A stretch of DNA of 64,000 bases from Amoebophrya sp. A120 (taxonomy: Eukaryota > Protista > Dinoflagellata). This document shows, piece after piece, positions 632 through 64,000 of the stretch. Position numbers and translations under genes: made by a program. The notes below the pieces were generated by a model. That model worked only from the letters and a program-made list of their open reading frames with translations, had not been told where the DNA came from and did no database searches. Within the stretch, counting starts at the first letter, position 1; the number at the start of each line of letters is the position of its first letter. The DNA lies in assembly GCA_905178155.1 (NCBI GenBank), contig CAJINV010000007.1, positions 606,358-670,357 of the forward strand, read 5' to 3'.

Positions 632-3600
632 ATGCTGCAGAATGTGTACTACTCCGCCAAAGACGTTGCCGTTGGGGCTTTGATGCCTGGATCTTCTGCA
701 AATCAAGACGACGAAGCGGCGGGTGCTGCAACTTCAAAGTTGGCGCGCAAGCACCCGGAGAAGCGGAAGAAGTGGGCTGCGGTGACCCGGGTTGGGAACA
801 CCGATGGTGATGACAGCAAGAGCAACCCGGCGGACATGATCCCGCAAGACGCCGAGTTTTTGAATGAAGAGGGGACGACGAATGAAGCGGGTCGTGATTC
901 GAAACCGCGGAACTCTGACGACTCTACGTCAAGCCTTCAGAGGCATCTTCACTCAGCGTCCAGCTCCGCGCTGGAGAAGAAAAGCAAGGAGTTCTTGGCG
1001 GAGGAACAACAAGGTGCGAACGATGCTCGCGTCCGTGACAACGCTGATTCTGCTGGGCAAAATAATGCTGGGAAAAATGACGAACCTGAGTCCAAAGACC
1101 ATGATTACGATTCTTCGTGGGCTGGCAAAGTGTCGAGTTTCTTCCAAGCGGCCAGCGACGCGGTAATTGGAAGCTTTTTCCAGGTGGGAACCGCGAAAAC
1201 TACTGCGGAAAGTAGCGGCGACAAAAATCTTCACCAGAGCAAGGAGCGAGATCAGCAGCTGCTCCCGCAGCAGTCCTTTCTCGAAGAAACACTGCCACCC
1301 ACGAACAACATTGGCGTAATATCGACGCCGGCTCCGCAGTTTTCTCCGATTGGTTCGCCTTTGTTGGTGCCCGCAGGAGAAGGCACAACACCGTGGGAAC
1401 CTGCCTCTCCGGAGACTGCTTCGGGGGGGTTTCTCGAGCAGGTTTCGAGCGTGTTGCAGGCGGGGACTGATGCGGTTGGAAGTTTGTTTCAGAGAACCAG
1501 TGCGGTAGTGGGGCTTTCACCGGGTGATCATCAGCATGCACAGGTGGAGCAGGAGGCCGAGCTCTCTGTGAAGACGACCAGCACGACAGAAACGTCGCCT
1601 CATCCGCCGGCGCCGCGTGCGGAGGGTTGTCCGTCAGACGATCAAACTGTGGCATCAAGTGTATCGCACAGAAAAAAGCTAGCACTTCTCAACAGTGGTA
1701 AAAACGCATGATGCGTAATATCGAAATGCAGTTGCAATTGCACGCGAAAGACAATAAATACAATAGTTCAAAAAGATTGTGTTTGTGACGCGCACGGCCG
1801 TCGCATGACACTCTGCAAGACTGGTTTTTGTTCAGCACGGCTTGTCTCTTTTCTACTGAAGTTGAGATGCTAGTAGTTATATTCTGTACGATAAAACCAA
1901 AACGAAGCCGTGTTGACGACAGCCACAACGGAAACGTCGCCGCACCCGCCGGCACCACCTGCGGGAAGTTTCACAGAGCTGCGAAAGGACCGCGCGAAAC
2001 CAAGTTTGGATCCCAGTAAGAACGAGAATGCCAACGCGGACCAGGAGCTACGGACGTACAAACGCCACATGGGTGCTGCTATCGAGAAGGTGAAGGGGAT
2101 GGATCGAGCGCGGCGCAAACTGCAACGAAAATTGGAGTACCCAGAACTACGTGAGTTTGTCCAGTTGCGGGAAAGCAGGGCGAATAAAGAACAAGAAGCA
2201 GAGCGTGCAAATAAAGCAGGCTCTGAGACGAGCGGAGAGCGAGGACCAAGTGATCATGCAGAACCAGCAGCAGCGGGAAACGCAAATCTGACTCGTCTTC
2301 AGGTGGAGATGTGCAAACTCGGGCCCAGCGTTGCCGGGCTGGTTCCCATCGAGCATTTTTTTGTCACGTTTTACAAAGAAAATTCACCGGTTGATGTTGG
2401 TGCCCAAGCCGCCAAGGGCCATACCCGTATCGTGGTTGCGGAGTATGAGGGAAGCGGTTTGGATATCGCCACCCTGGACCAGCTTGACCACGAGCAGGCG
2501 GATTCGAGTATTTCCATCTACCAGGGCAAAAGGCGGAAGTACAGCAGCATCAACAATCCGGGGTTCTTTGGCATTGAAACGTGGACGGACGACTTGGACG
2601 CCTATAAGGAAAAACCTGAAGAGAAGAAGAAAAAGGCAAAGTCCCTTATTTGTTTGGGCATGGTCCCTGACAGCACCCCCCAAGCCGCATTGATACAACG
2701 ACAAGGTCTGGGTGATGAAATTCCTTATGATGTGGGCACCTCGGGTCCGAAACAAAACGAGTTCAGGTTATACTCATTCGATGATCCTGTTGAGATTAAG
2801 GACCTGGTTGGGCTTGTGGGTCAGACGATGGGGTATGGGTGGAATGAAGATTACTCACTCAAGGGATCGCAACTGTCAACACTTTGTAAATGCGATTGTG
2901 AATCTTTTTTCTCCGCGACGGTACAACATATCTGTGCAGACACGAGCCCTGTCAAACACGGTACTAAATATCGTAGTGCCAGATCATGTGGTACCTGCGG
3001 AAAGGGTAGACACTGACGGATTGAGAAACCAGCTGAAAAAGAATTTGCTCCATCTGCTGGAGACTCTCCGTGATACAGTTACAGTTCAGGAAAAACATTC
3101 GCAAGGTGGGAGTACCAGTGGAATGCCTGCAAAAAGCAAAGTTCCACTGCACAAGCTTTGGAAGGACGAAGAAATGCGCAAGTTTGATCAGCTGCTTGAA
3201 GAAAATAAGCTCTCATATGAAAAAGGGGAGAAGATGGAACACGAACGAGAAGCGATCTCCGTAGTGGCTGATCCGCAGTTGATGACTCTGTTCGGTAAAA
3301 TAGTCACAGAATCAGAAAAGTCACTCCTTGCGCAGGAACACACAGAAGCATCAGACCACGCTCCAGTCGACGAGGACAAGAAGAAGCTGGGTGTTTATGC
3401 TCACGCGATGGACACAATCTGTCGGGCTTCAAGTGACATGGTGCGGGATCGTTTGAAATTCGCACCAGATCCGAGCGCAATAAAAGTGCAGCGCCGCTAT
3501 GCGTGCGAACTTTCCCGGGCTATGCGGACGGCAATTGAATCGGACACGGCCGAAAGCAGATTGGAAAGATTTGCCGCTGATGACAAAGCAAGGGAGAAAA

Positions 3601-4471: not shown

Positions 4472-4525
4472 GTTCATGTCTTCGTTCATGTCTTCGTTCA
4501 TGTCGTCGTTTATGTCTTCGTTCAT
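4472..4525. repeat. 12-bp tandem repeat (gttcatgtcttc, about 4 copies)
   Basis: Read directly from the sequence. Confidence 0.8.
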
Positions 4526-4888
4526 CGTCGCAAATGCAGGAACAGTCGATACATCTTTAATTCAAAACTTGTACTGGATTTCTTCCTGGACACAAGTATC
4601 TATTCTTGGATCCAATTTGTTTTAATATGATCTGATGTCGGACGAGTCGCTCACGCTCGACCTCCGACCGTGTGTTGCTTTGCACCCCTAGTGTCTTACC
4701 GACAAAAGAGCCAACAGGCATGTAGCCGCTAAGACCCCGTCAATTAGTACCCGTTGTGGGAAATCTAATTAGATCTTCTACCGCTACTAGAAGGGTGACT
4801 GTGTTTATTGAACTTGAGTCTCGTGTAGTTGTGGAGCGCGAATGCCCCTAGCCGCAATTTACGTCAGAAAACGTCTCCGAGGTGCAAA

Positions 4889-7800
4889 ATGGCAGCAAAG
4901 TTATCTCCGGGGATAATTGCAATTCTGTCTTCGCTGGAGCTGGGGTCCTACCACACCAACAACAATTCGTATAGCCCAGCCCCAGCACGCCCCTGTACGA
5001 CAACGATTCTTGTGCAGGCCCTAAAAGCGGTCCGCCGGCAAACCAGGAGGACGCACAGCAAGAACCTCTCGCAAACTGGACGGAGCAGGCAACATGACAC
5101 TACTTCTCAGGCGGTACAAAATAAATCCAAGACCATTCTGGACACACGACCAGCACATTTTTCCCTGCTGGCTCGTAGCTCGCGCGAGGACAGCACTAGG
5201 AGTACACGAGGTGTTGAAGGGAACCACGACGAGCAACCGCTGTTACGGCGAGCGCGTAACCCGCCAGCACATGAAGATGCAACCGAAACCGTCTTGGGCA
5301 GAAACGAAATAGCAAACGACCTCAAGCCCACCTCCTTCTGTGCGGGCGGATCGTGCGAGGGCGGGATAATTGCGCCAGAAAAGCCCAAACAGCTCCATAC
5401 CTACGACGAGGCGCGGGGTTTGCTGTTAGACGGAGCAACAGGAAGGATCATCGGAAAGAAGAGAGAGGGGAGCAATCAGATCGTCGATGTGGTGAACAAG
5501 AACTCCATGGTCGTCATAGGCACGATTGACCCAGCATCCGGGAATATAATCAGCGCTGCTACTGGCGAGGTAATCGGGTCTAGAACCGGAACAATAGAAA
5601 CACTAGACAGCGCAGCGGTTTCTGTAGCTTCACGGAACGCTGGTGATGGGTTTCCGACCACAGGAAACGGAGCTGTACAGCCTCAGACACGTGCAGCCGG
5701 TGATAACAAGCGAAACGACCAAAATCTGCAACAGAGCGCAGAGAAGACGACGAAACTTTCCCAACCACTTACTACCACGACCACCAAACTGCCGTTAGTT
5801 TTGCCAGAAAGCGAGATGGGGTACGGCGCTACAGCGTATTCTTGGCTTCTAGGCCCGAACCCGACGGGACGCTCTGTTGTGCACCCAAGTGTGGATAGGA
5901 GATATCCAATCATGCGGGAAGACACGCTCTCCCTGCACGCTTGCCCCCTGGACGTGTGCGTCTTTTTCCGAGTAGTAGGGACTTCAATTACGCCTAGTAC
6001 CCCAGAGGCGAGCTTGAACAAGATGTCTACTGCTCAGGAAATAAAGAATTTAGCTGCAGCAGGACCATTCGGCTGGCTCGGGGCGGATCGCGAGCGGCAG
6101 CAAATGGAAGTGCTAGATGCGGCCAGCGATTTGGGCGATAAGACTGTGCAGGCAAAGGGATGTTGGTATTTGTCGAAGCGAGTAGAGGTGGGGAAGAGTA
6201 ATAAAGATTCTCAACCTGCTGGAAAACAAGACGATCCTGATGTTGCTATTGATCCAGCAAGAGCTGCTGCTGCGATCGATCCAGCAAGACAGAATCGTGA
6301 TCCAGCAACACAACGTGTTCTACAAGCCGACGAGTACTTTATCAAGCACTGGGACAGTGGGGCGTTTTTGGATTTTGCCGGTATAGAAGAAACACCACCA
6401 GCAACTGTAAATAGCGGCGGCGGAGAACAAGAAGTTTCATTAGCTGCTGCGGCTGTACAACGAGTTCCTGACTTCACCTTCCCAGACAGTCTCTCCGCGG
6501 GCTCCTTCACCTTTGTTCGACCGGACGGGAGGAGCGATTCAGGCAATACAGCCGGTACAGCACCAGCTATTACAAGTACAACATTGAAAGTCCGGCCAAT
6601 CAACTTGCGTAAGGATGGGGCCGCTGGCAGCAATTACAGTATCCGCGACCGATTCGGAAATGCCGCTTGCTACCCGAGAGTGGAAACTTGGTCGATGACG
6701 AGTTCTTTATTGAGCACGACAAATAACTATGACATAACGGACGACCAGGTCCAGGAGCAACAGGAAGCAATAGCAAACGGGAATAATAGAAACGAAAACC
6801 CAAGCGCAAACCCCGCCGCAGCTTTAGCCCAGCAAATAGTCAACATGTACGCGCAGTTCAAGGGCGTTAGCTGCTTAGCCGGCGTCCCGTTTTACCTGAT
6901 GTCCCACCGGTCGCACGCGTTGATAGTCGACAAAGATGCCATGGGAGGGGAGGTCAATGAAGTCGCCCTTGACCCGAAGAAGCATCGGAAACCGGCGAAG
7001 GGGAAGTTTGTTTTCCTAAACGCCGGGCCGGACCTGGCTGGAGGGGACGACTCCGTTCAAAAAATGAAGAATCAAAATGCGAATCGGTACAGCCTGAAAG
7101 CCGTTGTCGCCGACGCGTACCTTCAGATCAAGAAAAACGACCTGAAACAAGTTCACTGGTCCGGCAGTGAAGAGGAAAATGAGAAAATTTACGGCTCTCC
7201 CGGTCTCTTCCATCCCCCCGACACTTTTTACCCGGACGGCCTCACCTGGGAGATTGTTGGCCGCGGCGCGCGGGGAATGGCTAGTAAGGTCTGTATCAAA
7301 GCGACGTTTGCGAATGATTTTCACGGCGAAGGCGGGGGGAAAAAGGCCGTGTATCTACAAGATTTCGTGCACGGGGGGGACAACGAAGGGCCGCGGAATA
7401 ATTGGCACACATCGGACGCTTTCGTCAACTACTGTGGCAGTTGGGAGGAATGGAGCTTAGTGCCGGTTGAAGACGATGATGGCAACATCAAGGACGGCAC
7501 AGAGGGTACCAGTACAGGGAACAACAGGAAGATCTGTCAGGAACTGGAGTTAACCACGACGACTACAACAACCACGACCACGACGGTTTTCTCTGGGACT
7601 GCCGTGCCGCAGGAAACTGGGAGTGTAGCAGTTGTAGTTGCAGCTGGTCGTGCCAATAGTAGCAATTCTAGCATTATGTCATGGTCCACATCTGACCGCG
7701 TCGACCTCGAAACAACTGGTAGGAACCCTGGAAGAACATCTAATTCATCATCTTCAGCTCAGTCTATCGCCTCCAGCTCTGATAGAGTAATTGGCGACCT

Positions 7801-9265
7801 GCAACGAGGCAGGAGTGATCGTACCGTGGGGGTGGAATCGTCTTCGCAACAAGGAGAAGTTTCAGACACAGGAAACGCCAACACGACAGTAAAAGCACGA
7901 CTCGTGCCCCCTTGCAAGGAACTCGTCAACGGTACGGTACGAAACGGAAAGAACTTGAATACCACTACAAACGCGTGCCACTACAACTCGACGAACAAAA
8001 CAGATCCACCACAGCAAGAAACCCGAGGCGACCGGCAAAAAGCCACCCTGTTCGGCCTCCCTCTCCCTTTCCCCATTGTCGTGCTGGTGATTATCTTTAT
8101 CGGACTCTGCTGCGCTTTTTTCACGATCACCTGCTGGCTTTGCGGGAGCTCCAGTTGTTGCTCTTGGGGAAAGAAAAAAGCCGAAGAAGAAGCACTGGAT
8201 GCGATCCTAGCTCCTTTGGAAAAGAAGTACAATAACCGGAGGAGCCAGAGTGGCCGGGATTTGTCAGCAAAGAGCAAGAAGCCAAAAAGAAAAAAAACCC
8301 TACCGCCTGGCGGCGCAGGTCTAGCAGGAGGGGATCAACATCCTCGTACTATCGGCGGTACTGGCACTGCATCTGATACTTCTAACACAGCTGGCGGCGG
8401 TGCGAGTGACAGATCGTCCAAAAGTAGTACGTTGGCCGCGTCCGATAGACCGCCGTCGACTTTCATTGGGGCGAGGACACCATCACCGGCTCTTGACTCC
8501 GAACAAATTTTTGGACAAACTGCAACACTTCCAGGAACAACGACAACAGCGAAGACGAAAAAGAAAAAAAGCACTAGCAAAGAATCTACTTCTACGCCGT
8601 CCGTGGCCATTGTAAGTTTCGGAGACCAAAGTAATAAAACTTCATCAACAGCTGGAAATGGAGATGTTGGAAGCAAGTCGATAATAATCGGCGGGACCGT
8701 GTCTTCTAATAACTCCAACGATCAGATGAAGTTTTACCCGTCGCAAGTAGCAGTCAATAATTCTGCCGAGACCAGTGGAAGTAGTGCGACGATAGTTACG
8801 AAGGCGTGCAACGAGAGCCATAGCGGAACTACAAGTGGGGGCAGTATTAAAAACGCCAACGATAAGGGAAGCAAAGAGCTGCAAGAACACCATCTCCAAA
8901 GCAGTTCGCTTTCTTCTGCAAGTTTCGATTACACGGAACAGCAGAAGCTTGCGATGCTCCAGGCCAACCAAATGCCAGGCTTAGCGGGAATCAGTAATGA
9001 GCTCGTGGAGTCCGCAAAATTTGGAGCAGAAGATGCAGATCATGTTGATCATATAATTAGCGGTTCCCAGGTAGAAGAACAAGTGCGGACATCTACTTCC
9101 AGAGGGAGTTTGTTGTCTGGAGAACGTCGTGTAGGTGCAAATGTGCCGGACTTCGCTAGACAAGAAAAAGAAGAAGTTGTAGTAGTAGACCAGAAAAAGG
9201 AGGAGAAACTCAACATTGCAAGCTTCGGGGGCTCGGGGGACGCGAGTCGGGAGGAACATTTCTAG
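4889..9265 (+). CDS. Large hypothetical single-pass membrane protein, apparently intronless
   Basis: 1478-codon ORF, first ATG at 4889. Hydrophobic segment PFPIVVLVIIFIGLCCAFFTITCWLC is followed by a Cys cluster, basic residues and a Ser/Thr-rich tail. Confidence 0.75.
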   Translation: MAAKLSPGIIAILSSLELGSYHTNNNSYSPAPARPCTTTILVQALKAVRRQTRRTHSKNLSQTGRSRQHDTTSQAVQNKSKTILDTRPAHFSLLARSSREDSTRSTRGVEGNHDEQPLLRRARNPPAHEDATETVLGRNEIANDLKPTSFCAGGSCEGGIIAPEKPKQLHTYDEARGLLLDGATGRIIGKKREGSNQIVDVVNKNSMVVIGTIDPASGNIISAATGEVIGSRTGTIETLDSAAVSVASRNAGDGFPTTGNGAVQPQTRAAGDNKRNDQNLQQSAEKTTKLSQPLTTTTTKLPLVLPESEMGYGATAYSWLLGPNPTGRSVVHPSVDRRYPIMREDTLSLHACPLDVCVFFRVVGTSITPSTPEASLNKMSTAQEIKNLAAAGPFGWLGADRERQQMEVLDAASDLGDKTVQAKGCWYLSKRVEVGKSNKDSQPAGKQDDPDVAIDPARAAAAIDPARQNRDPATQRVLQADEYFIKHWDSGAFLDFAGIEETPPATVNSGGGEQEVSLAAAAVQRVPDFTFPDSLSAGSFTFVRPDGRSDSGNTAGTAPAITSTTLKVRPINLRKDGAAGSNYSIRDRFGNAACYPRVETWSMTSSLLSTTNNYDITDDQVQEQQEAIANGNNRNENPSANPAAALAQQIVNMYAQFKGVSCLAGVPFYLMSHRSHALIVDKDAMGGEVNEVALDPKKHRKPAKGKFVFLNAGPDLAGGDDSVQKMKNQNANRYSLKAVVADAYLQIKKNDLKQVHWSGSEEENEKIYGSPGLFHPPDTFYPDGLTWEIVGRGARGMASKVCIKATFANDFHGEGGGKKAVYLQDFVHGGDNEGPRNNWHTSDAFVNYCGSWEEWSLVPVEDDDGNIKDGTEGTSTGNNRKICQELELTTTTTTTTTTTVFSGTAVPQETGSVAVVVAAGRANSSNSSIMSWSTSDRVDLETTGRNPGRTSNSSSSAQSIASSSDRVIGDLQRGRSDRTVGVESSSQQGEVSDTGNANTTVKARLVPPCKELVNGTVRNGKNLNTTTNACHYNSTNKTDPPQQETRGDRQKATLFGLPLPFPIVVLVIIFIGLCCAFFTITCWLCGSSSCCSWGKKKAEEEALDAILAPLEKKYNNRRSQSGRDLSAKSKKPKRKKTLPPGGAGLAGGDQHPRTIGGTGTASDTSNTAGGGASDRSSKSSTLAASDRPPSTFIGARTPSPALDSEQIFGQTATLPGTTTTAKTKKKKSTSKESTSTPSVAIVSFGDQSNKTSSTAGNGDVGSKSIIIGGTVSSNNSNDQMKFYPSQVAVNNSAETSGSSATIVTKACNESHSGTTSGGSIKNANDKGSKELQEHHLQSSSLSSASFDYTEQQKLAMLQANQMPGLAGISNELVESAKFGAEDADHVDHIISGSQVEEQVRTSTSRGSLLSGERRVGANVPDFARQEKEEVVVVDQKKEEKLNIASFGGSGDASREEHF

Positions 9266-10662
9266 CTGGTGTTAAAACGTCCCCGCATTCGGGATTTCCA
9301 CTCCATTTTCAGATCGTAATATCAGTCCCATAATAAATTCCAAAACATGAAGATGAAGCGAATTCGATCCAATCCCGTACTACTGTACACGTACAGGAAG
9401 TGTGCTAAATAAAAAGGCCAGGCTCATCGATCCGAATATAGCTGGATGAATTGCGGAAAGAGTGCCAGCGTATTCGCCTTCGATTTTAGGATTGCACTTT
9501 CTGGCGACGTCGGCGAGTTGATGCTTAGCACGTGTTCGGCCGCATAAGTTCATCTTTCCAGTGATCTGAAGAAGTAGTAATAGATCCTTCTTGATGTCGT
9601 GTGTCTCTTTCAAATACCGAAACAACAAGCAAAAAGATTTTCCGGGTCCTGATCCTTTTCTTTTCATGTGGGTCTTTGAAGCTTTGGAACCAGCATTCGG
9701 TAGTGAGATGATCCGATCAAGAGGGAAGCACTTTACGTTTATTTGTATGTTAATCAATGATCCAGCTTCACCTCCTGCGCTTTGACGATCCAGATCATTT
9801 ATTCATCTTCAGAAAGATTGAGAATGACATCTGTTGGTCGTGTGCTGGTAACGTCGAAAAAACAAAGTGCCACTCCCGTATTCGCAACATCCCGACCGCT
9901 AAAGAGTGTACAGCCCGTGTTGTTGGGCCTCTTTCCACCGAGGTGCAAGAAGAATTTTGATTCGCTTGAATTCTTTCTATGCACGAACTTCGAGTATTTT
10001 CTCGATACTCCTTGTCGATTCGACACTCCATGCCGATGAATTTTCGAACCCAAAATTGTAGGAACGAAGTGTGAAGATGCTGAGCGCTGACTTTTCGACA
10101 AGAGTTTGAATAGAGCAGCAATATCACCTCGAAAATTTCGAATGTGTGACTTGTATGAACCTTTGATATGTCATCCGTTCGTTGTAATCGTTATCGTGTT
10201 GATTCGTAATTTGATACTCGGAATTTTCTAATATACCAATCTTTGTAAGTATAACTTGTAAAGGTATTGAAGCGGTACTCACATGGATTCACGATATACG
10301 AAAACTCTATAAAGACGACTTTTCCGCTGAAAACAAGATCGCAAAATGATACTTAACAATGTCCGCTCTTGTATGATTTTGAACTATATGATTGTTTCGC
10401 GACAGTATTTCGTTCCGGTTTGACTTTGACTTTTATGGAGCGAGAACCGCACGAAGTGACAGGAACTTCATCTTCCGCTCTGTGCTGGTTGCTTTTATTC
10501 CAACTGTGAACGAGAAGAAACCAACCGTGTATTCTTGTTCGACGCGCAGGAGTAGAACTACTTGGTTCACGCCACAACCACCTAACCGCCTTCCTGTACA
10601 ACTGCCAGCCTGTCGCAGCAGGAGCCAAGTTCGTCTTCACACGACCAACGACCTCAAAGATA

Positions 10663-48457: not shown

Positions 48458-48524
48458 CCAACTGCGTCGGACTTGTTCCCCTTTGCCCTCCTGAGCTGCT
48501 CCGCTTTTATAACAGCAGCGCGAG

Positions 48525-48811: not shown

Positions 48812-48992
48812 GCGCGTTTTCCATAGTTTGGTTTTTTTGACGATGGTTGCAGCTTCGTCCACGTACTTCTGCGGAATCCAGGCGCACATCAGCTTGTGGA
48901 CATGTTCTACATCCGGGAGGGAACCATCATACGACTCGGGACCGTAGGCGCGTGCTTCGGCGGGGGCGATCTGTTCATTAGGAGAATGGAAA

Positions 48993-49243
48993 GATTAAGG
49001 ATTTCCATTGCAGTTGCGCCATTTTGTTTGTAGATGCCACGGACCAAGCATCTCGTTTGTAGATGCGACCTCGCCCTGGCACGCAACCTTGTGCTGGCAA
49101 TGCGTGCATGACAAATTCCGGAAATCCAAACAGTACTACATGAAGAACTTGTCATGCACCGGGTCAATCTGTACTGGTGTTTGTAATGCTGTTGATGCCA
49201 TACAAATCCAAATGAGGGGCAGGGGGAGTTGTGCACGTTCATA
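48993..49243. mobile_element. Introner family C with eroded left TIR
   Basis: Intact right family C TIR; left boundary inferred from reading frame (ggaaa/tcaaa). Confidence 0.7.
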
Positions 49244-49435
49244 TCAAATTTTCGTCGTGGATCTTCGCCGCTTCCAGCACCTCATGGTCGATTTTCAGGC
49301 TTTTTTCATTCTCATGAAGGTCGTCGTTGTGGCAGGAGCTTAGCTGCATCGTGTTGAGATGTTGTTGGTCCCCTGCAGCCTCTCCTCGCGCGGCTGCCAC
49401 TGCCAGTTGTGCTACTGCTAAACGACGGACCTGGG

Positions 49436-49506
49436 TATCAAGTGCAAATATGTCTGGGCCTCGAAGAATGCAGACTTGTGATGCTCTTTTTCAGTTACGC
49501 AAAAAA
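49436..49506. mobile_element. Truncated family A element (left end only)
   Basis: tatcaagtgcaaatatgtctgggcctcgaag, no right TIR. Confidence 0.7.
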
Positions 49507-49589
49507 CCTTCGTTCACCCCTGTCGTCCTCCGTAGCTTGTTCATCTCGTGCAAGCACCCCTATAAAAAGATATCTGACTTCAGTTCAAC

Positions 49590-49882
49590 TACATCGGTTG
49601 TAAAAACGTCCCCACCCCAGAGTCGAGATGGTAAATCTGCAATACAAATCTCCAGGAAATGGGAGTTGTGCATGACAAGTTTTCACCTGCAGCAGGGTAG
49701 TGCTGCTTAGCAAGGGAACAAGCCGCATGAGAGAGCCACTTTCTTATCCTGTTTACAGCATTACAAATTTCTTGAAAACACGACTGGAAATGCCCCTCAT
49801 GGAGCTGCGCATTACAACAAATGATTCCGTCATTGCACATTTGCATGACAGCTCTGGGGTGGGTACGTTTTTGCTGATGATA
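49590..49882. mobile_element. Introner family H, left boundary approximate
   Basis: aaaaacgtccccaccccagag / ctctggggtgggtacgttttt..gata; TSD not resolved. Confidence 0.75.
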
Positions 49883-49967
49883 CTGACGGATACCACGGGG
49901 TACTTGATGCCCGCCTACGAGGGCGACCCTCCGAAGGGCTGCACTGTGAAATACCAGACCAGTCACG

Positions 49968-50010
49968 TATCAATTGCAAAAATGTCTGGGTCTGGAAGAT
50001 TGCAACTTGT
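49968..50010. mobile_element. Truncated family A element (left TIR only)
   Basis: Near-consensus left TIR followed by unrelated sequence. Confidence 0.75.
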
Positions 50011-52479: not shown

Positions 52480-55400
52480 ATGTCAGAACACCTCCTATTA
52501 AGCTTTGTCGAGGACTACAAAAGCTACGTGAACCACGACGCATTGGACCACCTCAGGGCGCCCTGGACGGCCTCCACCATGGAAGTTTCTCTTTCCTCAT
52601 TCTTCAGCAGCAGCTCAGTTACAGCGGGACAGGACAGCAAGAGCAGGGGAACTTCTACGAGGATTTTTACACGAGACAGCGCAAGAACTACACCTCGAAG
52701 AAGTTGCTGTACCACGACGATAACAAGAGCGTTGAAGAGGAAGAGCACACGGACAAGATCAAGAACCCTGGAAGGAGCGGCAATGAAAACAAAATCCAGG
52801 GCCAGGGGCAACACGAAGGAGATGAAGCTGCATAAGATGCAGCTTCGGACATCACCATTGCTCCACTTGAAACAACTCAAGATGTTGACCATAAGCCTGG
52901 TTAGTTCCCCACTTTTTTGGTCCTCAGCGAGGCCTGCTGATGCAGCGGTATTAACCAAAAATGCCAACACAGAAGTGGACCTACAAGAATATCAAGAAGG
53001 GCAACTAGCAACATCATCATCCTCAAGCGGTAGAGACGAGCAGAGGTCATTTTTGCGAGGAACAAGGTCCTCCAGCTCTAAAAATACCGTTACCGGGGGA
53101 GATTCTACTGAAGGGGACGAAGTGCAACATCAGCAAGACCAGGACTTTCTCGTCCAGCGTTTCCGACGAGAGTGGAAACTGTACCAGGGTTTGTGTCTCT
53201 GGAAATCCGATATAAAAAAATCCCCTTCGACCGCGACGTCTTCATCTAAAATAGATCAACCTGAAACTGAAATAAGTCATCGCGAAGTTGTAGATGTTCT
53301 TGACGAGGCGAATAAAGTAGACGCTGAGGGAACACCAGGAGGCACCACTGCAGGTCATGAAGATGAAGGGCAAGAACTTGCTGTGCGAAATGTTGAAAAA
53401 ATGACACGAGAAGTACACGAAGATCACGATCATGACCGCGAGCTCCTGCACGAGGAGCTGGAATTGGAAAAGAAGCCCGATTTCAGTGTCTTCGGGAGAA
53501 CCCGGCCAAAAGGAACTACAAATGCCGCGATCCGGGCAGCTGAAATTCAAGCGGACAAGCGAGAAAAGGAATCCGCGGCTTTGGCCGGCAGAACCATTCA
53601 CGATTTGCAACGCAGTGCGGTAGCAGAGCTGAAAAAACAGTGGGAAAAGTTGTCGTGGGAATCGAAGATGAAATTGCTTTTCAAGAATAGAGAAATTTTC
53701 GGTGTTTTCTTGCCAGAGTTCATGCGCAAGGACCTCCTTCTCGGGAAAGCGAAAGTTACAACTACCGAGGAGCAAGAACTGGAAAAAAACGCCTTCATCA
53801 TGCCTGACGGGAAAACAACTTCGCCCCCCGAGGATCACTACTATCCCATTGCTCACACACCCACCAGCAGTGTGGGCGACGTCCCCGTCGCCGACGACTG
53901 GTTCTACAACTACCCTGTGGCGCGCACACCCAGCAGTGTGGGCGATTTGGACCACTTCGAACCTGTAGGACGACCGGGTGAAGCTAGTACACATGGAGGG
54001 CCCGACGTCCCCTGGCCAGCGTCCTCCGAAAGACCTTTTGTGGTTCATAATGCTCCAGCAGGTGGTGTTGTTTCCGAGAACTATCTCCTGCCCACTTTAA
54101 TTCACCCGACGACCTGCTGTGTGAATTTTCTGCAGATCATGGGCCCTTGCAGCAATTCTGTTCATGATCCTAGTGCAGCTGCGGTGGACCATTCTTGTAC
54201 CCACGCCGCTGGAATGGGAGCAATGGTTCTGCAGGGTCAACAACCGGATTTTTCCGAAGGCAACTTGCCTAGCTCGCCGGAAAGCAGTTCATCCTGTTGT
54301 TACAAAAGCGGTTCCTGCAGGTCCTCGCTGGAACTGAGTAAGAACGGAGAGGACCACGGAGCGCAGCAACAGCCGGGAAATGCCACCACGACGTCTTCTG
54401 CATCGACGTACTGCCCCAGTCCGGAGATGAAAGACGGCGGAATCACAGTGTTTACACCTCCATTCGTGTCGTGCAACGGGAGCAATTCGACGTCCGCGAC
54501 ACCGAATTCAAGTCCCGTGGCGGAGTCCGCGTTATCCATCCCAGAGGTGGATCACCCGGAACCGGAGCCGGAACGCAACGCCGAAGAGGACCCTGTTGTA
54601 ACGTCGTGCCCGCACTGTGCAGCAGCAAGTGGGACCGCGGCTCTTGTTGCGAATCGTCCTCGCGAAGTAGATCTAGAACAACATATCGCAGCTGTATCAA
54701 ATAAAAGTGACAGCGAGGGCCGGGATAATTCACAGCCGTGGACCGAAATGAAGGTCGTTGAAAGTACGTCCAAAAGAACTAAAGACAAGCGAGTAGTACC
54801 TCCAAAAGTGCCCGAAGTAGAACCACGTCGAAGCCGAAGGGTACAAGGTGCGGCAGAAGCAGGTGGCACAGCGGAGCAGGATGTGGGAGGTTCTCGAAAG
54901 AAGACTTCGATGTTGAAAGCGGCACACCATGTTGCAGACGACCACAGCGGAGGTTCTCGAAATGAAGTCGTGCGACCAGGCGATTATACCAAAAAGCAGG
55001 CACATGCCCCGCCTCTTATTTCACAGGACGTGCCTTGTATTGGTAGCACGACTTCTGCAGCAGCTGCGCCATCTTGTCTGATAGTACCCGACCCGGCAAC
55101 ATTAAAAGGCCGGCAGCAGGAGCGACAGCACCCTGACTCTACAACTAAAGCTGCTGGGACAGACGTGGAGAAAAAATGGAAAGCTGCTCCGCGTGGAAGT
55201 TGTACGAAGACGGATAAAACAAAAACGTCGCCCAGCAAAAGTTCTACTAGCAGCAGCAAGAGTAAGAATCCGTGGAGCGCGTTGATGCTATCGGATGACG
55301 AGGAGGACAGTGGTGAGCCGGCTGCTCTCCCCCTGTCGGGAGACGAGGATGAAACTGAGCCAGGCTTCAGCCGGCAAACGACAACGACGACCAGCGAGCA

Positions 55401-58400
55401 TCCCTCTCCCGACGACAGGGAAGGACCAGAGGAAACGACGGAGAAAGTGCCATGCTGCGTCGACGGCGGTATTCAGGCAAAAACAGAAAAACTACACACA
55501 TCCTGTGCACCACTAGCACTTCCAGAAGATGCTGTGAAAAAGGATGACACGAAAAAGTCCCGGACCTTCGAGGAACCCACTGCATCGCCGATGCCAAAAT
55601 CTACTCCGGCTGCTGCGTCGAATGTTAAAGCGAAGAAGAAGAACGGGAACAAGAGCGGGACGAACAAGCAGGCAGAAGAACAAAGCAAAAGTTCTCGTAC
55701 GCAGATCGCGGCTGACATTTCTTCTCCTACGCGCCACCACACGACCAGCGAAGACGTGTTAATACAGGAAGAAGCCAGCACACTAGCAGGAGAAGAAGTC
55801 ATTGCCGTGAACGATCACGGGATTCCGGAAGTTTTGCCAGGATTGCTGTTTTATCAACTGCAAAAATGTCTGGGTCTGGATGAATGCATGTTCGTCATGC
55901 TTGTCTGGCATGACTCTTAAATCTGTCATGCACATTACCCAAGAGCCGGAGCCCCATTTTTCTGTCATGCAGAGACGCAGCCTGTCATGCAGAATAGGCA
56001 ACACCTGGAAGCTCATAAACTTGTCATGCTGAGCCAGCACTTGTGGCCTCCTCGTGATACGCCACTCAGCATCACAAGTTTCCAGACCCAGACACTTTTG
56101 CATTTGATATGTTTTCCTACAACAAAAGACTCCCACTGACCACCTGGGACGACCCGGTCATTGAGAGATTTTTCAAGGAAATCGAAGCCGAGGCCGAGAA
56201 GATCTTGAATCTGAAAACTTCCAAAAGCACACAGAAGGATATAACCCGCTCAGGTGTTACAATCTCAAACGTTACAATAGAGTTTGCAACTTGTGTTGCA
56301 TGATGCGCATGACTGACTCGCAGAGGGCTCCACTCTCTGCAATACAAATTTCGCCAGATTGTAGTGGGGTTTGGGACTCCGGAGCTTGTCATGCGCAATC
56401 CTATGAGAGTGGGCTAGAACATGCACTCTTGCATCACAGATTTCCATATTCTATTGTAACGTTTGAGATTGTAGCAGCTGAGCGGGTTATAAAGGACCTT
56501 ATCCGCAAGCAGCTGGCGGATAAGAACTACGCGAAGAAAACTTTGCAGGAGCTTTTACCGAAGGCGCGGTGGGAAATTCTAGAGGGAAAGGCACGGCTGG
56601 AAGAGTTTTATTCCAACAAAAAGAGGGAAATAACGGAAAGGCTGACCATTTCTGCACAACAGGGTGATGGACAAGAACACCAGATGACGGTAGACCAACT
56701 CTACGACGCGGCTGTGGCGGAGGCGCGGGATCTCAGCAGCGAGGAAATTGCGGAAAAGATACTAAGACCGGATGTCAAGCGGGCTTTCAGCAAAATTGGG
56801 AATGTCATATCTCGTCAGCGGAACAAAATCCTGCCGCGGGAGTCCGAGGTTATCAAGTATCGCAAGAACAAACTGTTTCACTGTGAACTTGTGATGCATA
56901 GAATGGAGCACAGAACGATTTGTCTTGCTACAGCTGCAAGACATCGGATTTTTAGGCGTGTTTTCCCTGCTTTGGAAGCACGCATGGCAAATTTTCTGTG
57001 TCATGTGTAACAAATTTGTGATGCAGATCTTGCAAAGCCATCACAGTGAAACAGTTTTTTCGTGGGATATCAAGACGGGCGTTTTTAAAGAAGCCAGCAC
57101 CGGGTTGTTGATGTGGGTGGACGTGTATCAAATGCAAAAATGTCTGGGTCTCGAAGAATGCAAGTTTCTCATGCTTGTCGGGCATGACTCGAGAATCTGT
57201 GTTGCATAAAGCACGAAGAAGCCCTCTTACCTGTCATGCAAAAACGCAGTTTGCCATGCGGAATACGTAAGACATGGCAGCCAAAAAATTTGTCATGCAT
57301 AGCTGCGTATTGCAGTGCGTCTATCATTCACTTTTAGCATTACAAGTTTCCAGACCCAGACATATTTGCAATCCATAACGTGGCGGGCAGCAGCGCAGAG
57401 AAAAGACAGACGAAAGCGGGTCTGCAAAGCATGATGCGGGGGAGGATTGTCGTTGAGGTAGACGAAGCGGACGCGGTTTGGTCGAAAGAAAGGATGGAGG
57501 AACGGAAGCAAAGACGGACGGAAGTGGCGTTGGAAGATTCAAAGGTCCAAGAGCAATTGCAGCTGAAAGAAGCGCCAACTACAAAAGACCGTACAACGGC
57601 CCGCGTGGAGCAGCTACAGGCTCCAGCCGACACTACTTCTGCGCACCACGCAGTAGAAGAACCACGGGCAGATGAAGGCTCTGTTGCGGCAGCACCTAGA
57701 AGGGAAGCAGAGATGATGGTGGAGGCAGAGCCGAGTGCGATAAACCGTGGTGATGAAAAAATTGCTTCACAGGTGGACGTTGCTCCACAGGTGGACGAGC
57801 CGGGTAGAAATGTTCAACCACAACCATTACCACCTTCCGCAAGCACTCCTGTCGTCGCACAACTTGGGAAGAAGGCGCAGAGGAAGGCCAAAGCGAAGGC
57901 CCGAGCGAACAACGGCGAGAATAATAACCACACAAATAAATCCGACACAGCTCCTACAACCGCTGCAGACGGAGCTACAGCTGAAGGATCGGAGAGTATG
58001 ACGGGACCACCAACAAAAAAGAGCACAGGTGAAAAAAATCAAATCCGCGAAGTAGTACCTACAAATATGAACAAGCACGGTTTTCCGGAAACCCTTCCCG
58101 CGTTGCTCTATTCTTACGAGCGGTTTCTCCCCTTAACCAGTTGGGACGATCCGAAACTGACGCAAATTTTAGCCGACATCGAGGAACACGCCAACCGGAA
58201 TCTGGGGCGCAAGACCAGCGCTTTGGGGCGCAGTTTGGCGGCGCAACACCAACAACTTCTAACGGGGGCGCAGCAGCAACCAGGTGGAGGTCAACACCAG
58301 CTCGCCCAGCAATGCCGGGGCGGACTCCGGGGGAGCTTCGGGAGCAGCGTGGCGACGAGACAGGCGTTGTCGGAGAAACACTATGCTCAGAAGACGATTG

Positions 58401-61400
58401 ACAAATTACTCCCCGAGGCGTACGCCGAAATTGAAGAGCAGAAAAAGCGGCTTCTCGCGTTTAACAAAGAGCACAGCAAAAAGGGAAAGCGAAACGAACT
58501 CTTCACGGAGGAAGAATTTGTGCAGATGATTCTCGCGCAGGAGAATGGCGGTCCCCCGCGGGCCTACGAGAAATTTGGCAACAAACTGGTGCGCGTGAAC
58601 AACGATTCGCTTACTGGCTGCGACACGGAACTAATCCCAACCGGGGTGCTGAAGGAGAGACAAACCGGGCTTTTGATGTGGATGGATATCAAAACGGCCA
58701 ACGCAACAAGGATTCTGACCAACTCGACCGTGACCACCCTGGGCGGCACGTTGCGGGTTGAGAGGGACGAGTCGGATCCGGTGGAGCTCGCAACGAAGAT
58801 TGAGTCGGTGAAAGACGTATCCTGCGCAAAAGTATCGTACTCGTATTGCAGTCATGCATTACACATCCTGTTCTTAAGGTAAATCAGCATTACAAATTTT
58901 ATTTCTCATCATGCTGAGTAAAGTTGTATATGCATTTATACGAGTGCGATACTTTCGCAATGCATAAGACGGGCGGAGTAAGGAGCACGTGTTGGTGGAG
59001 CAAGAAGATGTTGTCGGAAAAAATCAATCTCCCGTTGTGCCAGAAATTCTTGCATCAGGAGCTGCATCCTCTTCAAATGCAAACCCGTGCTCTGGCTCTA
59101 GCTTCTCTGCGACACAAAGACAAGCGTCCCCCGAGCGAACGGGTGTTGTGGCCTGTTCCGGACAAGATGAAGTAGAAGCATCACAGCCTCTGCTGGCGCT
59201 GAAACAGGACGCCCCTTCCTCTGTGGAATCACCACCGGGTGTAACAACTGTGCCAACATCGTATGTCGCTAATCAGGAGCCAGTACAATGCGGCGGTACA
59301 ACAGCTGTGGCAGGAAAACTATCTTCTTCACCAGCAGTTGCGCATGCTGCAAGTCAGCAGGGTAGTAATACTCCCGTAAGATTACACGACGACCCCTCGT
59401 GTGGCAATACGCAAGTCATCAAACAACCCCCTCTCGAGGACGACCAGGAGCAGGCACAAGCAGAACTGCCGGCCGCGCCTTCTGCTGCAGAAGAATTGCA
59501 GTCGGTTCTAGCAAATGGAGCTGCGACAGAAGTGGGAAGGCACGACCTCGAGCACCATGAGCACCAGCATCACGGCACGCAGACAGTTTCACCCACTGAA
59601 GCCGAGGCGGAGGAGGATGCTTTGTCCGTGCAACTGGCTGCAAAGCTGTCGCTCAATGACACAACAGCTACTTGTCCTTCGCCGATTCTAGTTAATTCCC
59701 ATCATCATGAAAAAGATGAAACAACTTCTACCTCCGCACCACAAGCAGATGGCGAAAGATCGGTCCAAAGCAGGTCGTACAAGAAGCTCGGGTCTGTCGC
59801 GCGGTTATTTCACCACATTGGGATTTTCACCACGGTGCTCCCTCATGAGAAAGAACAAGAAATCCGCCGCTTCGAGAACTTCAGGCGGTCACTTGACGGT
59901 TATGACAGTGCACAGCTCCCCCCCCCCCTCATTTGTAAGTATGGCATGAACAGCAATACAAACACCAGCACACGTGGAGCCTGTACATGACAAATTTATG
60001 TGCCTGATGTAGTACTGTTTTGGCTTCCAGAATCTGTCTTGCAAACAGTGCCACAACGCACCGACTGGATTTGAGGTTTTGCATGACAAACGAGGGGGAG
60101 GGGGAGTTGTGCACTCTCATACCGGTTCTTCGAACAAACAACATCAAACTCTACTTCAGCAGTTTGATTTCTTCCGCGGACGGCAGGCCAACTACTGGAC
60201 ACTGACCGCTATCGAAACCTACTTGCGGTTTTTGGAGTACGAGCTAGAGAGGGAAGAAGATCAACATGCCGGAGCCAACTACTCGAGTCCTAACGCAACT
60301 GGTGCTGGTAGTCACGGAGCAGGCGCAGGTGTCGTGTCTCCTTCTGGTGGGAAGCAAAGCAGTTCGGGCAAGGAAGATGTGGGGAAGAAGAAGAGCCTTT
60401 TTGCTCGCCTAATCGGTAGAAGCAGCTCGTCTTTGGTGCGAACGACAAGGGGAGGCCCCTCAGGAGAGGATGCTGCAGTGTTGCGAAACACGGCGAAAAT
60501 AAACGAGGATATTCCCGCGACAAGTGCTAGGGCCGCTCCTGCGGCGATTGCAAGTAGCACGATGAAAACAGCGAGCAGGCTCTTGACCGAGAAGCACATC
60601 CGAGAAGCGCGCGAAGAGTTGATGCTGATAAAAAACCACAACGCCAAAAATTGTGCGGTTCAGGAGCATGACAAAGACCAGAAATTCCAGATTGTCGGCT
60701 GGACTAACTACCTGACCGAACATCTCCGCTTACCGTGGGGGGAGTTTGTGACCCTGTCCCAGGTGGAGGCATATCAAATGCATAAATGTCTGGGTCTGGA
60801 AACATGTGATGCTGGGTGTCGTATCATGATGAGGGCACAAGTGCTGGCTCAGCATGACAAGTCTCTGAGCTTCTAGGTGTTGCCTATTCTGCATGACAAA
60901 CTGCATTTCTGCATGACAGAAAAGCTGGGTATCCGGGTAGACCAGGGCCCCTGCTCAGACCAGGGCCCCTGGGACCAGGGCCCCCAGGACCAGGGCCCCT
61001 AGGACCAGGGCCCCTAGGACCAGGGCCCCTAGGACCAGGGCCCCTACGGATTGGGGCCCCTGCGGACTGAACGGCATCCCGGAATCTGGTACACGGCGCG
61101 GCGCGGCCGGAAGCGGAGATGTCTACCAGCGGATCTTCCAGTCGAAATAATCTGGGCCACCAAGTAAGTATGCATGTCATGGGACTCCTAGTATCTGGCC
61201 AGGAGGTAGAAGAAGGTAGGCCACAAGTAATATGGGACGCAGTCGGCTGACTACCCAGAGCATTTCTCTCACTTTCTAGATTCCTCGACGCGCGTCGGCG
61301 TCACAAGTTCTCAGTTGTGCAGACCCAGATCTATTTACAATGCAACGGGCATCGTTTTTTTTTGTAGTCAGCCACGTACTTGAGCTTCTCCGTCTGTCTT

Positions 61401-64000
61401 TTTTGGGTGGTGTCGTTGAGGAATCTTGTGCATTTTTTTCCCTTGATGATGCTTGTCTGAACGATTATTCTGTAAATCTCCGCCGCAGCTTCGATGTAGT
61501 ATGGCAGTTTCATTCTCGGTATTTTTTCATAGCGGCGCCATCGGTGCGTATGTGGGGTACGGAAATGCGCATTTTTTCGCGGCACCGACGACGGGCGGCG
61601 GGTTGGTGCGCAGTTGTACTGTCGCGCGATAGATATCAAGGGGAACTGCTTCGCATATTTTTCCGCCTGGAAATCCAGCTGGAAACATTCGGGAAGGAGA
61701 TGCAGCCGAAGAGGAAGATGCCCTTTCAATGCATTTCCCGCTGGAATTCCAGCTCGAAACATTTGGAAAAGGCATCTGCGCTGCATTTCCGCCTGGAAAT
61801 GCAGCTGAAGGCGCCTTTTCAATGCATTTCTTGCTGGAAATCCAGCTGGAATTATTTGGAAAAGACATCCGCAGCGGATTTCCACCTGGGAATGCAGCTG
61901 CAGACGCCTTGTCAGTGCATTTCTAGACGGAAATCCAGCTGGTGGAAACATTTGGAAAAGGCATCTGCAGCGCGTTCCCACCTGGAATCGCAGCTGCAGA
62001 CGTCTTCTCAGTGCGTTTCTAGCAGGAAATCCAGCTGGTGAAAACATTTGGAAAAGGCAGTTGCAGCGCGTTTCCACCTGGAAACGCAACTGCAGATGCC
62101 TTTTCAACGCATTTCTAGCTGGAAATCCAGCTAGAAATGCACTCGGTAACCAAATCAAAGCAAGCTTGCTCGTGACATCACACCAGGGAGATCTTGATCT
62201 CTTCCCCCGTCCGCACCTGCGCATCCTGGGCAAAAACATGCGGGGATGTTTTTGCCCAGGTTCTGCTGCTACACGTCATGTATCTAATTATTAGGTTCTG
62301 GCTTTTATAGGAATATCAATATGCGAAGCCTTTCCATGTCATACCACGCAGATCAACACTTATGCTTTGCCTGTGCCTGTACACGTGCCCTGCCCCTGCG
62401 CGCCAAGTAACGACAAGCAGCATGAAGAGCCCAACAACTTTCCGCCGAGTCATGAAGCCAAAAATAAAGAAGCACAGTGAGACGCCACGACCGACGGGCG
62501 CCGTTTGTATTCGAAGTGTGTGTTTCCCTGCAAAAGCATTGCTCGAGCGGACCGGGATGCAGCTCAAACTGCTAACGAGAGAGATCACAAATTGCCACCA
62601 TGACCGCCAAGCTTTCCTTCGTTTGTACGTAGAGCGACGCCCCAACTTCTCCAGATCCAGACACCAGATTCCGGGATGCCAGATTCCGAGACACCGTAGG
62701 GACCCCAGTCCGTAGGGGCCCCACTCCGTAGGGGCCCCAGTCCGTAGGGGCCCCAATCTGTAGGGGCCCTGGTCCCAGGGGCCCCTATTCCAGGGGCCCT
62801 GGTCCTAGGGGCCCTGGTCCCAGGGGCCCTGGTCTACACCTTTACCGAAAAGCTGAGCTCTCGGGTAACGCGCATGACAGATTTAAGAGGCATGCCAGAC
62901 AAGCATGACAAACATGCATTCTTTCATACCCAGACATATTTGCACTTGATAAGGCACTAAACACACGACTAGCAACTACATCTGCTTCCTCTTCTTCAAC
63001 ATCCTCTTCGCCGGGGAACAAGGGCCAGAGGAAGATTTTATCCTGTGCAAAAGTATCGTACTCGTATTGCAGTGATGTAATTACAAATCTTTTTCTTAAG
63101 GTAAATCAGCATTACAAATTTTGTTTCTCATGCTGAGGAAATTTGTAATGCATTTATAAGTACGAGTGCGATACTTTTGCAATCCATAGATTTTCGGGCG
63201 CGAACATTTCCTCTTTCTCGACACCGTGAAAGACGCAGATGAGAGAATCAAAGCCGGAAATAACCCCGCTGGAAAGCATCCTGGCAACGTCGCGGTGTTC
63301 TCTTCAATAAATACAAGAGGACAGCAAAGTGCGGCTGGTGCAGATGGCCACGTTGGCTGTACTAGAGAACAAGAAGACAATTCTCAGCACACATCATTAT
63401 CGGGTGGTCTGCTGAACCATGTGAAGCAGGGAAAGTTTGCGAGTTACGAGGAAATTACGGTAACAAATGCCTTTATGAGAGTGTCAGGATTGAAATCGTC
63501 AAAGTTGAAATGATTTGCCATGCATAAAATGGATGCCAGTCGGAAGCCCACTTATCAAGCGGCGCATGACAAATTTTCCGAGCACCGGAATCCAATTTGT
63601 CATGCTGCTTAGGCCCAGAAGACTGCTTTTGTCATGCTATCTTAGCAGCTCTATTTAAAACCCTAAACAGGCTCACAATCGGCCATACTTGCCATCCCGG
63701 CAAGACAGGCGCCGCATGCTTTGCATTTTATGCATGACAAACTACTATTTCAACTTTGGCGATTTCAATCCTGACAGATCCATAGCCTTTCTGGAGAAGA
63801 TGTTGCCCAGTGTGGAGCGTGTAATATCAAATGCAAAAATGTCTGGGTCTGGAAGGATGCAACTTGTGATGCTACCTCTGGACTCTACATAAAATCTGTA
63901 TTGCATGAACAGCAAAAGAGGTGTATTTTGTGCTACGCGGAGAGGGCATTTCTCATGCGGTATGAGCATCAGAAAGCCCTCGCAAAATCTCTGATGCTAG
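52480..64000 (+). CDS. Very large hypothetical protein with a duplicated unknown domain; at least 10 introners; continues beyond the window
   Basis: In-frame joins GLLF|SYNK, TQKD|LIRK, EVIK|TGVF, WVDV|AGSS, SVKD|GRSK, SLDG|SSNK, QVEA|LNTR, QRKI|FGRE, TNAF|LEKM. The true start may be a downstream ATG. Confidence 0.85.
55852..56109. mobile_element. Introner family A
   Basis: Family A TIRs; TSD tgttt. Confidence 0.94.
56240..56491. mobile_element. Introner family E
   Basis: Family E TIRs; TSD aagga. Confidence 0.94.
56858..57069. mobile_element. Introner family I
   Basis: TIR tatcgcaagaacaaactgtttcactgtga / tcacagtgaaacagttttttcgtgggata; TSD tcaag. Confidence 0.92.
57126..57377. mobile_element. 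Introner family A
   Basis: Family A TIRs; TSD acgtg. Confidence 0.93.
58818..58966. mobile_element. Introner family B
   Basis: Family B TIRs; TSD agacg. Confidence 0.93.
59901..60121. mobile_element. Introner family C
   Basis: Family C TIRs; TSD acggt/ccggt. Confidence 0.92.
60928..62846. mobile_element. Non-autonomous foldback/Mutator-like DNA transposon
   Basis: Perfect 9-bp TSD gaaaagctg (60919-60927, 62847-62855). TIR ggta..gtagaccagggcccct is extended by inverted arrays of 15-bp ggaccagggccccta units. No recognisable transposase. Confidence 0.85.
61657..62140. repeat. Internal satellite of semi-palindromic tttcc(a/g)(g/c)ctggaaa / gcagctgc units
   Basis: Recurring gctggaaatccagctgg..aaacatttggaaaaggcatctgc blocks. 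Confidence 0.85.
63039..63188. mobile_element. Introner family B
   Basis: Family B TIRs; TSD gattt. Confidence 0.94.
63474..63784. mobile_element. Introner family F
   Basis: Family F TIRs; TSD gcctt. Confidence 0.93.
63825..64000. mobile_element. Introner family A, cut by the window edge
   Basis: Consensus left TIR and family A interior. Confidence 0.9.

Follow-up and report, generated by a model that had tools for sequence, protein, structure and literature searches.

A single cut register is compatible with all informative junctions of transposon-like, non-GT-AG introns in a 64-kb stretch of Amoebophrya sp. A120

Genes in a 64-kb stretch of Amoebophrya sp. A120 DNA (contig CAJINV010000007.1; the whole stretch is hereafter called the window) are interrupted by short elements bounded by terminal inverted repeats (TIRs), most of which begin with TAT and end with ATA, carry a 5-bp target site duplication (TSD) on their flanks and are removed without GT-AG borders. 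More than 60% of the introns of A25 and A120 are non-GT-AG. The question of how these are spliced dates from 2021 and owes its persistence in part to the direct repeat, which masks where the cut really falls. The question raised by this locus is where, within that repeat, the cut falls, and what makes it. A single register, in which the intron opens one base before TAT and closes four bases past ATA (N-TAT...ATA-NNNN), is compatible with all 15 informative junctions, including those with mismatched and decayed repeats. All coordinates are given on the plus strand, which carries all modelled genes.

Cut register at the informative junctions

With k defined as the number of left-repeat bases removed along with the element, the joined sequence constrains k wherever the two repeats differ. 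Seven of the 15 informative junctions derive from contigs (sets X3, X4, X5 and X7, RNA by a tool's guess, from one sample of one study) and eight from database proteins. At the contig sites 25495–25764 (family A2; 4/4 runs), 28228–29158 (family C, TAA..ATA ends; 2/4 runs) and 30400–30610 (family D; 2/4 runs), each with a 4/5 repeat, the mismatch falls at repeat position 5 and the right copy is retained, giving k≥1. At 26838–26983 (family C, repeat 4/5; 1/4 runs), 24514–24821 (family F, TTT..ATA, repeat 4/5) and 31781–31965 (family D, TAT..ACA, repeat 3/5) the mismatch is at position 4 and the left copy is retained, giving k≤1; for the latter two the register was inferred from the starts of contig pieces, at 24826 in X3 record 10 and at 31970 in X3 record 11. 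The seventh site, 23502–23776 (family A1, repeat 4/5; X3 record 9), gives k≤3.

Among the protein junctions, the one of element 1662–1893 (repeat 2/5) allows k=1 or 2, its joint being a hybrid of both repeats that is present on neither side. Sites 39948–40335 (repeat 3/5), 42836–43100 (A1, repeat 3/5) and 36875–37102 (an old element, repeat 3/5; junction of database protein P0024) give k≤1, while the old elements 38767–39274 (TAC..ATC) and 39350–39709 (TAC..ATA), both with the repeat reduced to 1/5, give k=0–2 and k=1–2, respectively. Two further old elements with a 1/5 repeat leave k=1 as the unique solution: 37375–37623, whose intron (37374–37627) reads GT...AG, and 40938–41713, whose intron (40937–41717) reads AT...TT.

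The number of sites excluding each register (n=15) is 7 for k=0, 0 for k=1, 8 for k=2, 11 for k=3 and 12 for both k=4 and k=5. When k=1 was compared with its mirror image, k=4, all 7/7 younger discriminating sites followed gene direction. Multiplying the probabilities of the 15 individual sites under k=1 gives 8e-7, of which the protein sites contribute 6e-5. It is the TIR ends and not the target sequence that define the cut, in line with the structure-guided excision of the original prediction. In this register, position +2 is T in 45/45 and +3 is A in 44/45 younger copies, whereas +1, -2 and -1 are free; G at +1 (16/45) and a terminal AG (3/45) both occur at chance level.

Even where the repeat has decayed to 1/5, old copies of the window retain TAT or TAC as well as the A run, together with the mirror counterparts of both. 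Since they are spliced with the repeat at 1/5 and the TIR ends retained, the repeat is a scar and not a signal, and it is dispensable in old copies.

Inventory of the elements

The window holds 53 TIR elements, close to the roughly 50 originally reported: 46 were found by sequence and 7 older ones via database-protein junctions. They cover 26% of the window, besides approximately 6 broken or cut pieces. A strict scan demanding TAT..ATA ends, a TIR score ≥9 and an exact 5-bp repeat retrieved 26 pairs, versus 0 in 5/5 local base shuffles; the 46-element catalogue was built after it from relaxed scans, BLAST and sequence reading, the initial scans having demanded TA at the element ends. One candidate (43989–44311) was dropped, as its TSD matched at 1/5 positions and it belonged to no family. 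The size of the catalogued elements is mostly 146–388 bp.

A nested copy (40977–41237, family A1, inside 40938–41713) was excluded from TSD and end counts, so that the younger set comprises 45 copies. TAT..ATA ends, said to be nearly universal, were found in 45/52 elements; in the end logo of the younger copies the first three positions are T (45/45), A (44/45) and T (43/45), and A occupies +12 to +14 in 33–40 of 45. A perfect 5-bp repeat flanks 32/45 younger copies; repeats of 4 or 6 bp in that register flank none (0/45). The earlier statement that each element is flanked by a 5-bp repeat thus holds for these 32 and fails for the seven old copies, whose repeats agree at just 1–4 of 5 positions, as well as for its own first-named example (1662–1893, 2/5). 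Similarly, recurrent TIR families do exist, as 8 multi-copy groups plus singles in place of about ten. Near-full-length relatives (69–96%) of 39 catalogued elements were found in loci L001–L133, described below. With both insertion orientations, short non-coding length, fixed-length TSD and TIRs, the elements have the properties of a MITE (miniature inverted-repeat transposable element).

Sliding the boundary from -2 to +7 does not yield GT-AG in any of the 45 younger copies, as had been claimed; the claim does not extend to the old copies, one of seven (37374–37627) being itself GT...AG. Four canonical GT-AG introns coexist with the elements (27071–27253, 37217–37333, 37714–38183 and 38301–38592), two of which had been pointed out before, and 4/4 begin with GTA. 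The last three of them end in AAACAG, with an acceptor that is A-rich instead of pyrimidine-rich.

An internal motif (GCATGACA and variants) occurs in 41/43 short elements of unrelated families and in both orientations, often at spacings of 16, 32 or 48 bases. Motifs of this type number 170 in elements versus 29 in the 50 kb outside, and may represent a candidate subterminal binding site for a transposase; a 10–11-bp periodicity was not found. An Rfam scan of the window gave 0 hits, as did a search for the TIR pattern in viral contigs.

Removal from transcripts and reading frames

The transcript-like contigs skip 11/11 elements in 25380–30660 by exactly L+5 (L being the element length), and they skip the GT-AG intron 27071–27253 as well; each joint is backed by 1–4 runs. 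Besides the four register-informative sites of this interval, they skip the A1 elements 25821–26066 and 27435–27696, the TAT..GTA element 29582–29871 and the family G element 27762–28078, whose TAC..GTA ends are compensatory and which is spliced in 4/4 runs. Reverse-oriented copies (26124–26381, A1; 29261–29520, B; 30063–30218, C) are skipped just as forward ones. Two raw RNA runs, X9 and X10, contributed 5 and 1 partial reads on the gene and were given no weight either way.

All these elements interrupt one host gene (23328–32554) for a membrane adenylate-cyclase-like protein of 1178 aa, with 19 elements and one GT-AG intron. Its remaining elements are 24136–24399 (A1, perfect TSD; scan, frame and homologue alignment), 25196–25451 (B) and 30668–30932 (A1), both with a perfect TSD and evidence from scan, frame and contigs, 31105–31394 (A1 with a decayed TIR and a perfect TSD; frame and contigs) and 31458–31679 (E, perfect TSD; scan, frame and homologue alignment), together with three of the contig sites described above (23502, 24514 and 31781). 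The predicted product has the same length as database protein P0001, labelled Amoebophrya sp. A120, and is identical to it at 1177/1178 positions; P0024 carries the same label. When aligned with 8 homologues, one of which bears the source name class 3 adenylate cyclase, the conserved junctions were gap-free, including the two in-frame joints already noticed within catalytic motifs, NKNIG|D (element 27762) and AIEGP|IGS (element 29582). The homologue alignment also covers the elements at 26838, 28228 and 31781. A Pfam search with 16 window proteins, among them the cyclase-like product, gave 0 hits.

Frame restoration, reported earlier for every intact case, was borne out: six gene models were used to test 43 elements, and after removal of L+5 no internal stop remains for 43/43. 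Of these, 41 are frame-informative, while one sits beyond the stop and another close to the end of the window. Keeping any coding copy in the transcript leads to stops. Frame by itself permits L+2, L+5 or L+8.

The DNA-like run X1, on the contrary, retains all introns: eight contigs with a depth of 37–51 pass from element to exon to the next element unbroken, whereas breaks would be expected if DNA lacking the elements were common. The X1 evidence covers 15 listed joints (1117 others exist) of this one DNA-like run, and rare forms drop out of contigs. Moreover, the cut follows gene direction although insertion orientation is about even, which points to an event at the RNA level.

Proposed removal mechanism

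We give slightly better than even credence to removal by a U2-type spliceosome that is relaxed and takes its guidance from the ends of the TIRs in a fixed register, the elements being MITE-derived introns. The left TIR would supply N-U-A-U as the 5' splice site, its U+2 being read like the U of GU, and the right TIR, or its stem with the left one, would set the 3' cut by distance instead of by AG. The check on G+1 and on the AG end would be relaxed in such a U2-type spliceosome, the paired TIR ends serving as guide. As 1+4 equals the 5-bp TSD, each insertion, in either orientation, would restore the exon exactly, which would explain the genome-wide invasion.

In this register, U+2 and A+3 match the start of the four canonical introns, all GTA, as a relaxed spliceosome would have it, and the old element 37374–37627 is now a plain GT...AG intron in the k=1 register. 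In the yeast P complex (post-catalytic), U+2 pairs with U6 A51 (10.1101/212811). According to the genome paper, A120 retains all but six of 89 spliceosomal proteins together with U2, U4, U5 and U6, and the top non-canonical motifs of Table S4 have T at +2 in 9/9 cases in A120 and 9/9 in A25 (PMC7789003). The original prediction of a second pathway beside the U2 spliceosome is one possible reading of the fixed register (T+2, A+3), for which a relaxed spliceosome is an equally good explanation or a better one.

Several points weigh against this reading. In the yeast structure, a G+1/G-1 pair and A-2 select the 3' site (10.1101/212811), and both are absent here; U1 was undetected in A120 (PMC7789003). 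The predicted stem, with the ends paired in 38/44 minimum-free-energy folds, would bury +2 to +4 and must open. The motifs of Table S4 and Dataset S2 are possibly biased by aligners that prefer GT, AT or CT starts, and the needs of a transposase would account just as well for a conserved T+2 in young copies, the first scans having required TA. As for the register, the chance that random registers at the seven contig sites would all fit k=1 is 0.014, and about 0.10 for some shared register; these sites come from the single sample whose RNA status is a tool's guess. The eight protein sites depend on database gene models, which are fallible, one of them having dropped a micro-exon. A register test based on codon frequency and stop codons at 52 imperfect sites of related loci was null (26/59).

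We advance more tentatively, at somewhat less than even credence, a stronger proposal: that in A120, and in A25 to judge from its TT-NN motifs, the spliceosome would have U+2 as its sole base requirement at the intron ends, measuring the 3' site four bases from the TIR with no G+1/G-1 pair, AG or U1, so that any 5-bp-TSD insertion would be a perfect intron in either orientation. If true, the near-universal GU-AG check of the second step would be replaced, in a natural system, by a transposon-supplied ruler.

Alternative explanations

The best surviving alternative keeps the same RNA-level register and assigns it to a spliceosome-independent, structure-guided endonuclease and ligase reading a stem with 1-nt 5' and 4-nt 3' overhangs. 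We know of no candidate enzyme, which counts against it; old copies with eroded stems and copies with single mismatched ends (TAA, TTT, ACA, ATC) hold the same register, and the register happens to reproduce U+2/A+3, with an ordinary GT-AG intron (37374) at one end of its range. We hold this alternative less probable than the spliceosomal reading, though well more so than the remaining ones. It would nevertheless account well for the absence of any terminal sequence requirement beyond the TIR, for the strong terminal stems seen in 38 of the 44 folds, for the splicing of the compensatory TAC..GTA ends of 27762 in 4/4 runs and for the undetected U1. It is also the mechanism proposed for euglenid introns, whose pairing is offset (+4..+6 with -8..-6) and which leave the transcript in circular form (PMC11282704).

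An RNA-level removal with a cut sliding within the repeat, in which k=1 would recur through luck in a small sample together with bias in the annotation, is considerably less probable. Variable positions are indeed given in the legends of Fig. 3 and S23 of the genome paper (PMC7789003), and the contigs alone leave the above chance of about 0.10 for a common register. All 15/15 sites fit k=1, on the contrary, with the probability product reported above, and as the two unique junctions read AT...TT and GT...AG, at least one of them is no choice by canonical preference.

Programmed DNA excision before transcription, as in the TA-bounded internal eliminated sequences (IESs) of ciliates, had been raised as a possibility in the original prediction, and is not supported. 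TA-starting transposon ends and exact restoration do resemble IESs, the DNA-like run may cover one life stage only and rare excised DNA could escape among the X1 joints listed. Ciliate IESs are absent from somatic DNA, whereas the X1 contigs run unbroken through the exon/element borders; the runs that skip elements also skip the GT-AG intron, the 1+4 asymmetry lies in gene direction at 7/7 younger discriminating sites with orientation about even, and TA is not left at the joint. We regard it as very improbable.

Least credible of all is that reverse transcriptase produced the skips by switching template across repeat-flanked hairpins, the cell using other junctions or none: a stem with a direct repeat is a classic template-switch substrate and all transcript evidence is cDNA-derived. 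Yet every coding copy, if retained, halts translation, the product of the 19-element gene is a conserved protein with gap-free catalytic motifs, and the junctions persist with the repeat decayed to 1/5.

Constraint in related loci

A scan with the TIR pattern retrieved, from another assembly, 133 loci (579 kb) in which the same families occur, containing 450 distinct related elements, of which 244 were oriented by codon score (leave-one-out 76/77; neighbours agree in 132/134). Perfect TSDs in these loci showed no positional preference, with GT-AG obtainable in 10/190, and orientation was even for most families. When TA was no longer demanded, 4 of 171 oriented copies had lost the mirror 3' A and 0 had lost the 5' T (p=0.125), a difference that is no more than suggestive. 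Two window patterns were rejected as they did not replicate in the related loci: an excess of TSD mismatches at positions 4–5 (13/18 in the window; 15/9/7/6/9, p=0.26, and 12/16/11/7/15, p=0.38, in the related loci), and an orientation bias of families A1 and C (28:20 and 10:22 in the related loci).

Relation to known systems

From their sequence, the window elements are A120-type Amoebophrya introner elements, a system already published, as had been recognised: the TAT start, the 5-bp repeat, the families and the non-GT-AG removal are all present. Farhat 2021 described 29,850 copies of approximately 240 nt, with support from RNA and no transposase found (PMC7789003). Their inverted-repeat motif (TAT, 7 variable bases and at least 3 A) and their direct repeats of 3–5 nt (5 bp in Fig. 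S19) are those seen here. As to where splicing occurs with respect to the hairpin, the authors describe it as variable or unknown (PMC7789003), in contrast with the one register of our 15 junctions. Among the rows listed (41 of 58) for A120 families by Gozashti 2025, family 38 is Ginger-like with '5-bp TSD, TA/TA Termini', and splice mechanisms are mixed per family, unlike the one register found here (PMC12130899). We found no stated fixed register in the literature, with the figures of Farhat (Fig. 3, S19–S25) covered by legend and the Gozashti supplement in part. What is added to the published system is a fixed register together with a U+2 rule, both drawn from a single window and a single transcript sample.

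Introners of Polarella and Symbiodinium are likewise dinoflagellate TIR elements with TSDs turned introns; they must co-opt G-H/AG from the TSD (10.1101/2020.10.14.339549), whereas here targets are unconstrained, as the 10/190 above indicates. The Roy et al. 2020 preprint does not mention Amoebophrya. Euglenid nonconventional introns share the MITE-like offset TIR stem, TSD-like repeats and non-GT-AG borders, but here +2 pairs with -5, against +4..+6 with -8..-6 there, where circular products are reported (PMC11282704). In Fritillaria borealis, MITE-derived non-GT-AG introns also lie beside canonical ones and are attributed to a modified U2 spliceosome (PMC13326754, PMC11282704); preferred ends are AG-AC and AG-AT and U1 is kept there, whereas here just +2/+3 are fixed. 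That the Fritillaria spliceosome handles such introns (PMC13326754) provides a precedent for the relaxed spliceosome we favour.

A fixed register would bring about 30,000 'variable' junctions under one rule, N-TAT...ATA-NNNN. Such a rule would correct annotation and explain insertion free of target and orientation constraint; it predicts the branched base, the invariant bases and possible compensating changes in U6 or Prp8, and bears on the limits of spliceosomal GU-AG relaxation and on the conversion of transposons to introns at genome scale.

Mobilisation and nested inserts

The elements may have spread through an integrase-like DDE transposase acting in trans with a 5-bp stagger, as suggested by the TA..TA ends, the 5-bp TSD and family 38. 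IS3EU/GingerRoot elements, an integrase-like DDE family, share the TA..TA termini and TIRs; their TSD is usually 6 bp (PMC10045372), whereas it is 5 bp here, with six-bp repeats in 0/45. The proposed check for long copies with the same TIRs enclosing a transposase retrieved none: six open reading frames (ORFs) of long copies gave no credible Pfam hit to a transposase in about 0.64 Mb searched, and an approximately 810-bp coding copy, looked for in comparison with family 38 and related TIR families (PMC12130899), was found neither in the window nor in the 133 loci. One ORF-bearing example, in locus L052 (476–2934), is a 2459-bp TAT..ATA copy with a perfect TSD and a 415-codon minus-strand ORF without Pfam hit, which is probably a passenger or a nested insert.

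Element 60772–62951 (A2, reverse) reaches 2180 bp as it is enlarged by a distinct nested element (60928–62846) with GG..CC ends and a perfect 9-bp TSD. The long TIRs of the latter consist of GGGGCCCC-type units in tandem, and inside it lies a repeat ORF on the minus strand (61331–62272), for which no family hit was found, Atlas matches reaching just the 0.77 level. We take its anatomy to recall Mutator/Foldback elements. An insert of about 800 bp (28256–29078), with a tandem GACAGGTGACC-type repeat, lies within element 28228–29158 and is spliced out together with it. An intergenic element-like stretch (34190–34720) is bordered by repeated, partly inverted TACTCAGG/CCTGAGTA units and contains inner tandem repeats of approximately 75 bp.

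Other genes and elements of the window

Very long low-complexity ORFs of 1478, approximately 3140 and more than 2440 codons occupy 4829–9265, 10510–21546 and 52474–64000, with no Pfam hit in the exons tested; the 1478-codon ORF is without any element. At the window start, the old TAT..ATA element 162–537 (repeat 3/5; junction of protein P0023) is uninformative as to register. Perfect TSDs flank 13633–13843 (D), 13945–14167 (E), 15182–15330 (C), 17247–17492 (A1), 18380–18636 (A2) and 21023–21241 (E), while 19264–19525 (A1) has a 4/5 TSD.

Downstream of the cyclase-like gene, the old element 40439–40707 (repeat 4/5) is also uninformative, and 41826–42132 (F) has a perfect TSD. Elements 42192–42516 (G) and 42529–42684 (C), both with perfect TSDs, surround a micro-exon of approximately 7–12 nt (whole stretch 42192–42685); the P0024 model fuses both as one intron, shifting the frame, and our own model continues into a G/K-rich tail that ends near 43500. 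A reverse-oriented A1 element (43503–43764) lies at or after the stop of the gene model. Elements 45960–46298 (G) and 46400–46655 (A2) follow, again with perfect TSDs.

A region of decayed copies (48230–50011, no strand assigned) contains one element at 48525–48811 (TSD 4/5) and partial ones at about 48230–48457, 49095–49243, 49436, 49599–49882 and 49968. Amid them a short stretch is duplicated (48180–48230 and 49505–49535), which suggests a local rearrangement or a pseudogene at 48100–50050.

In the last part of the window, perfect TSDs flank 55852–56109 (A2), 56240–56491 (B), 56858–57069 (D-related), 57126–57377 (A2), 58818–58966 (C), 63039–63188 (C) and 63474–63784 (F); 59901–60121 (E) has a 4/5 TSD, and a final A1 element (63825–64000) is cut by the window end.

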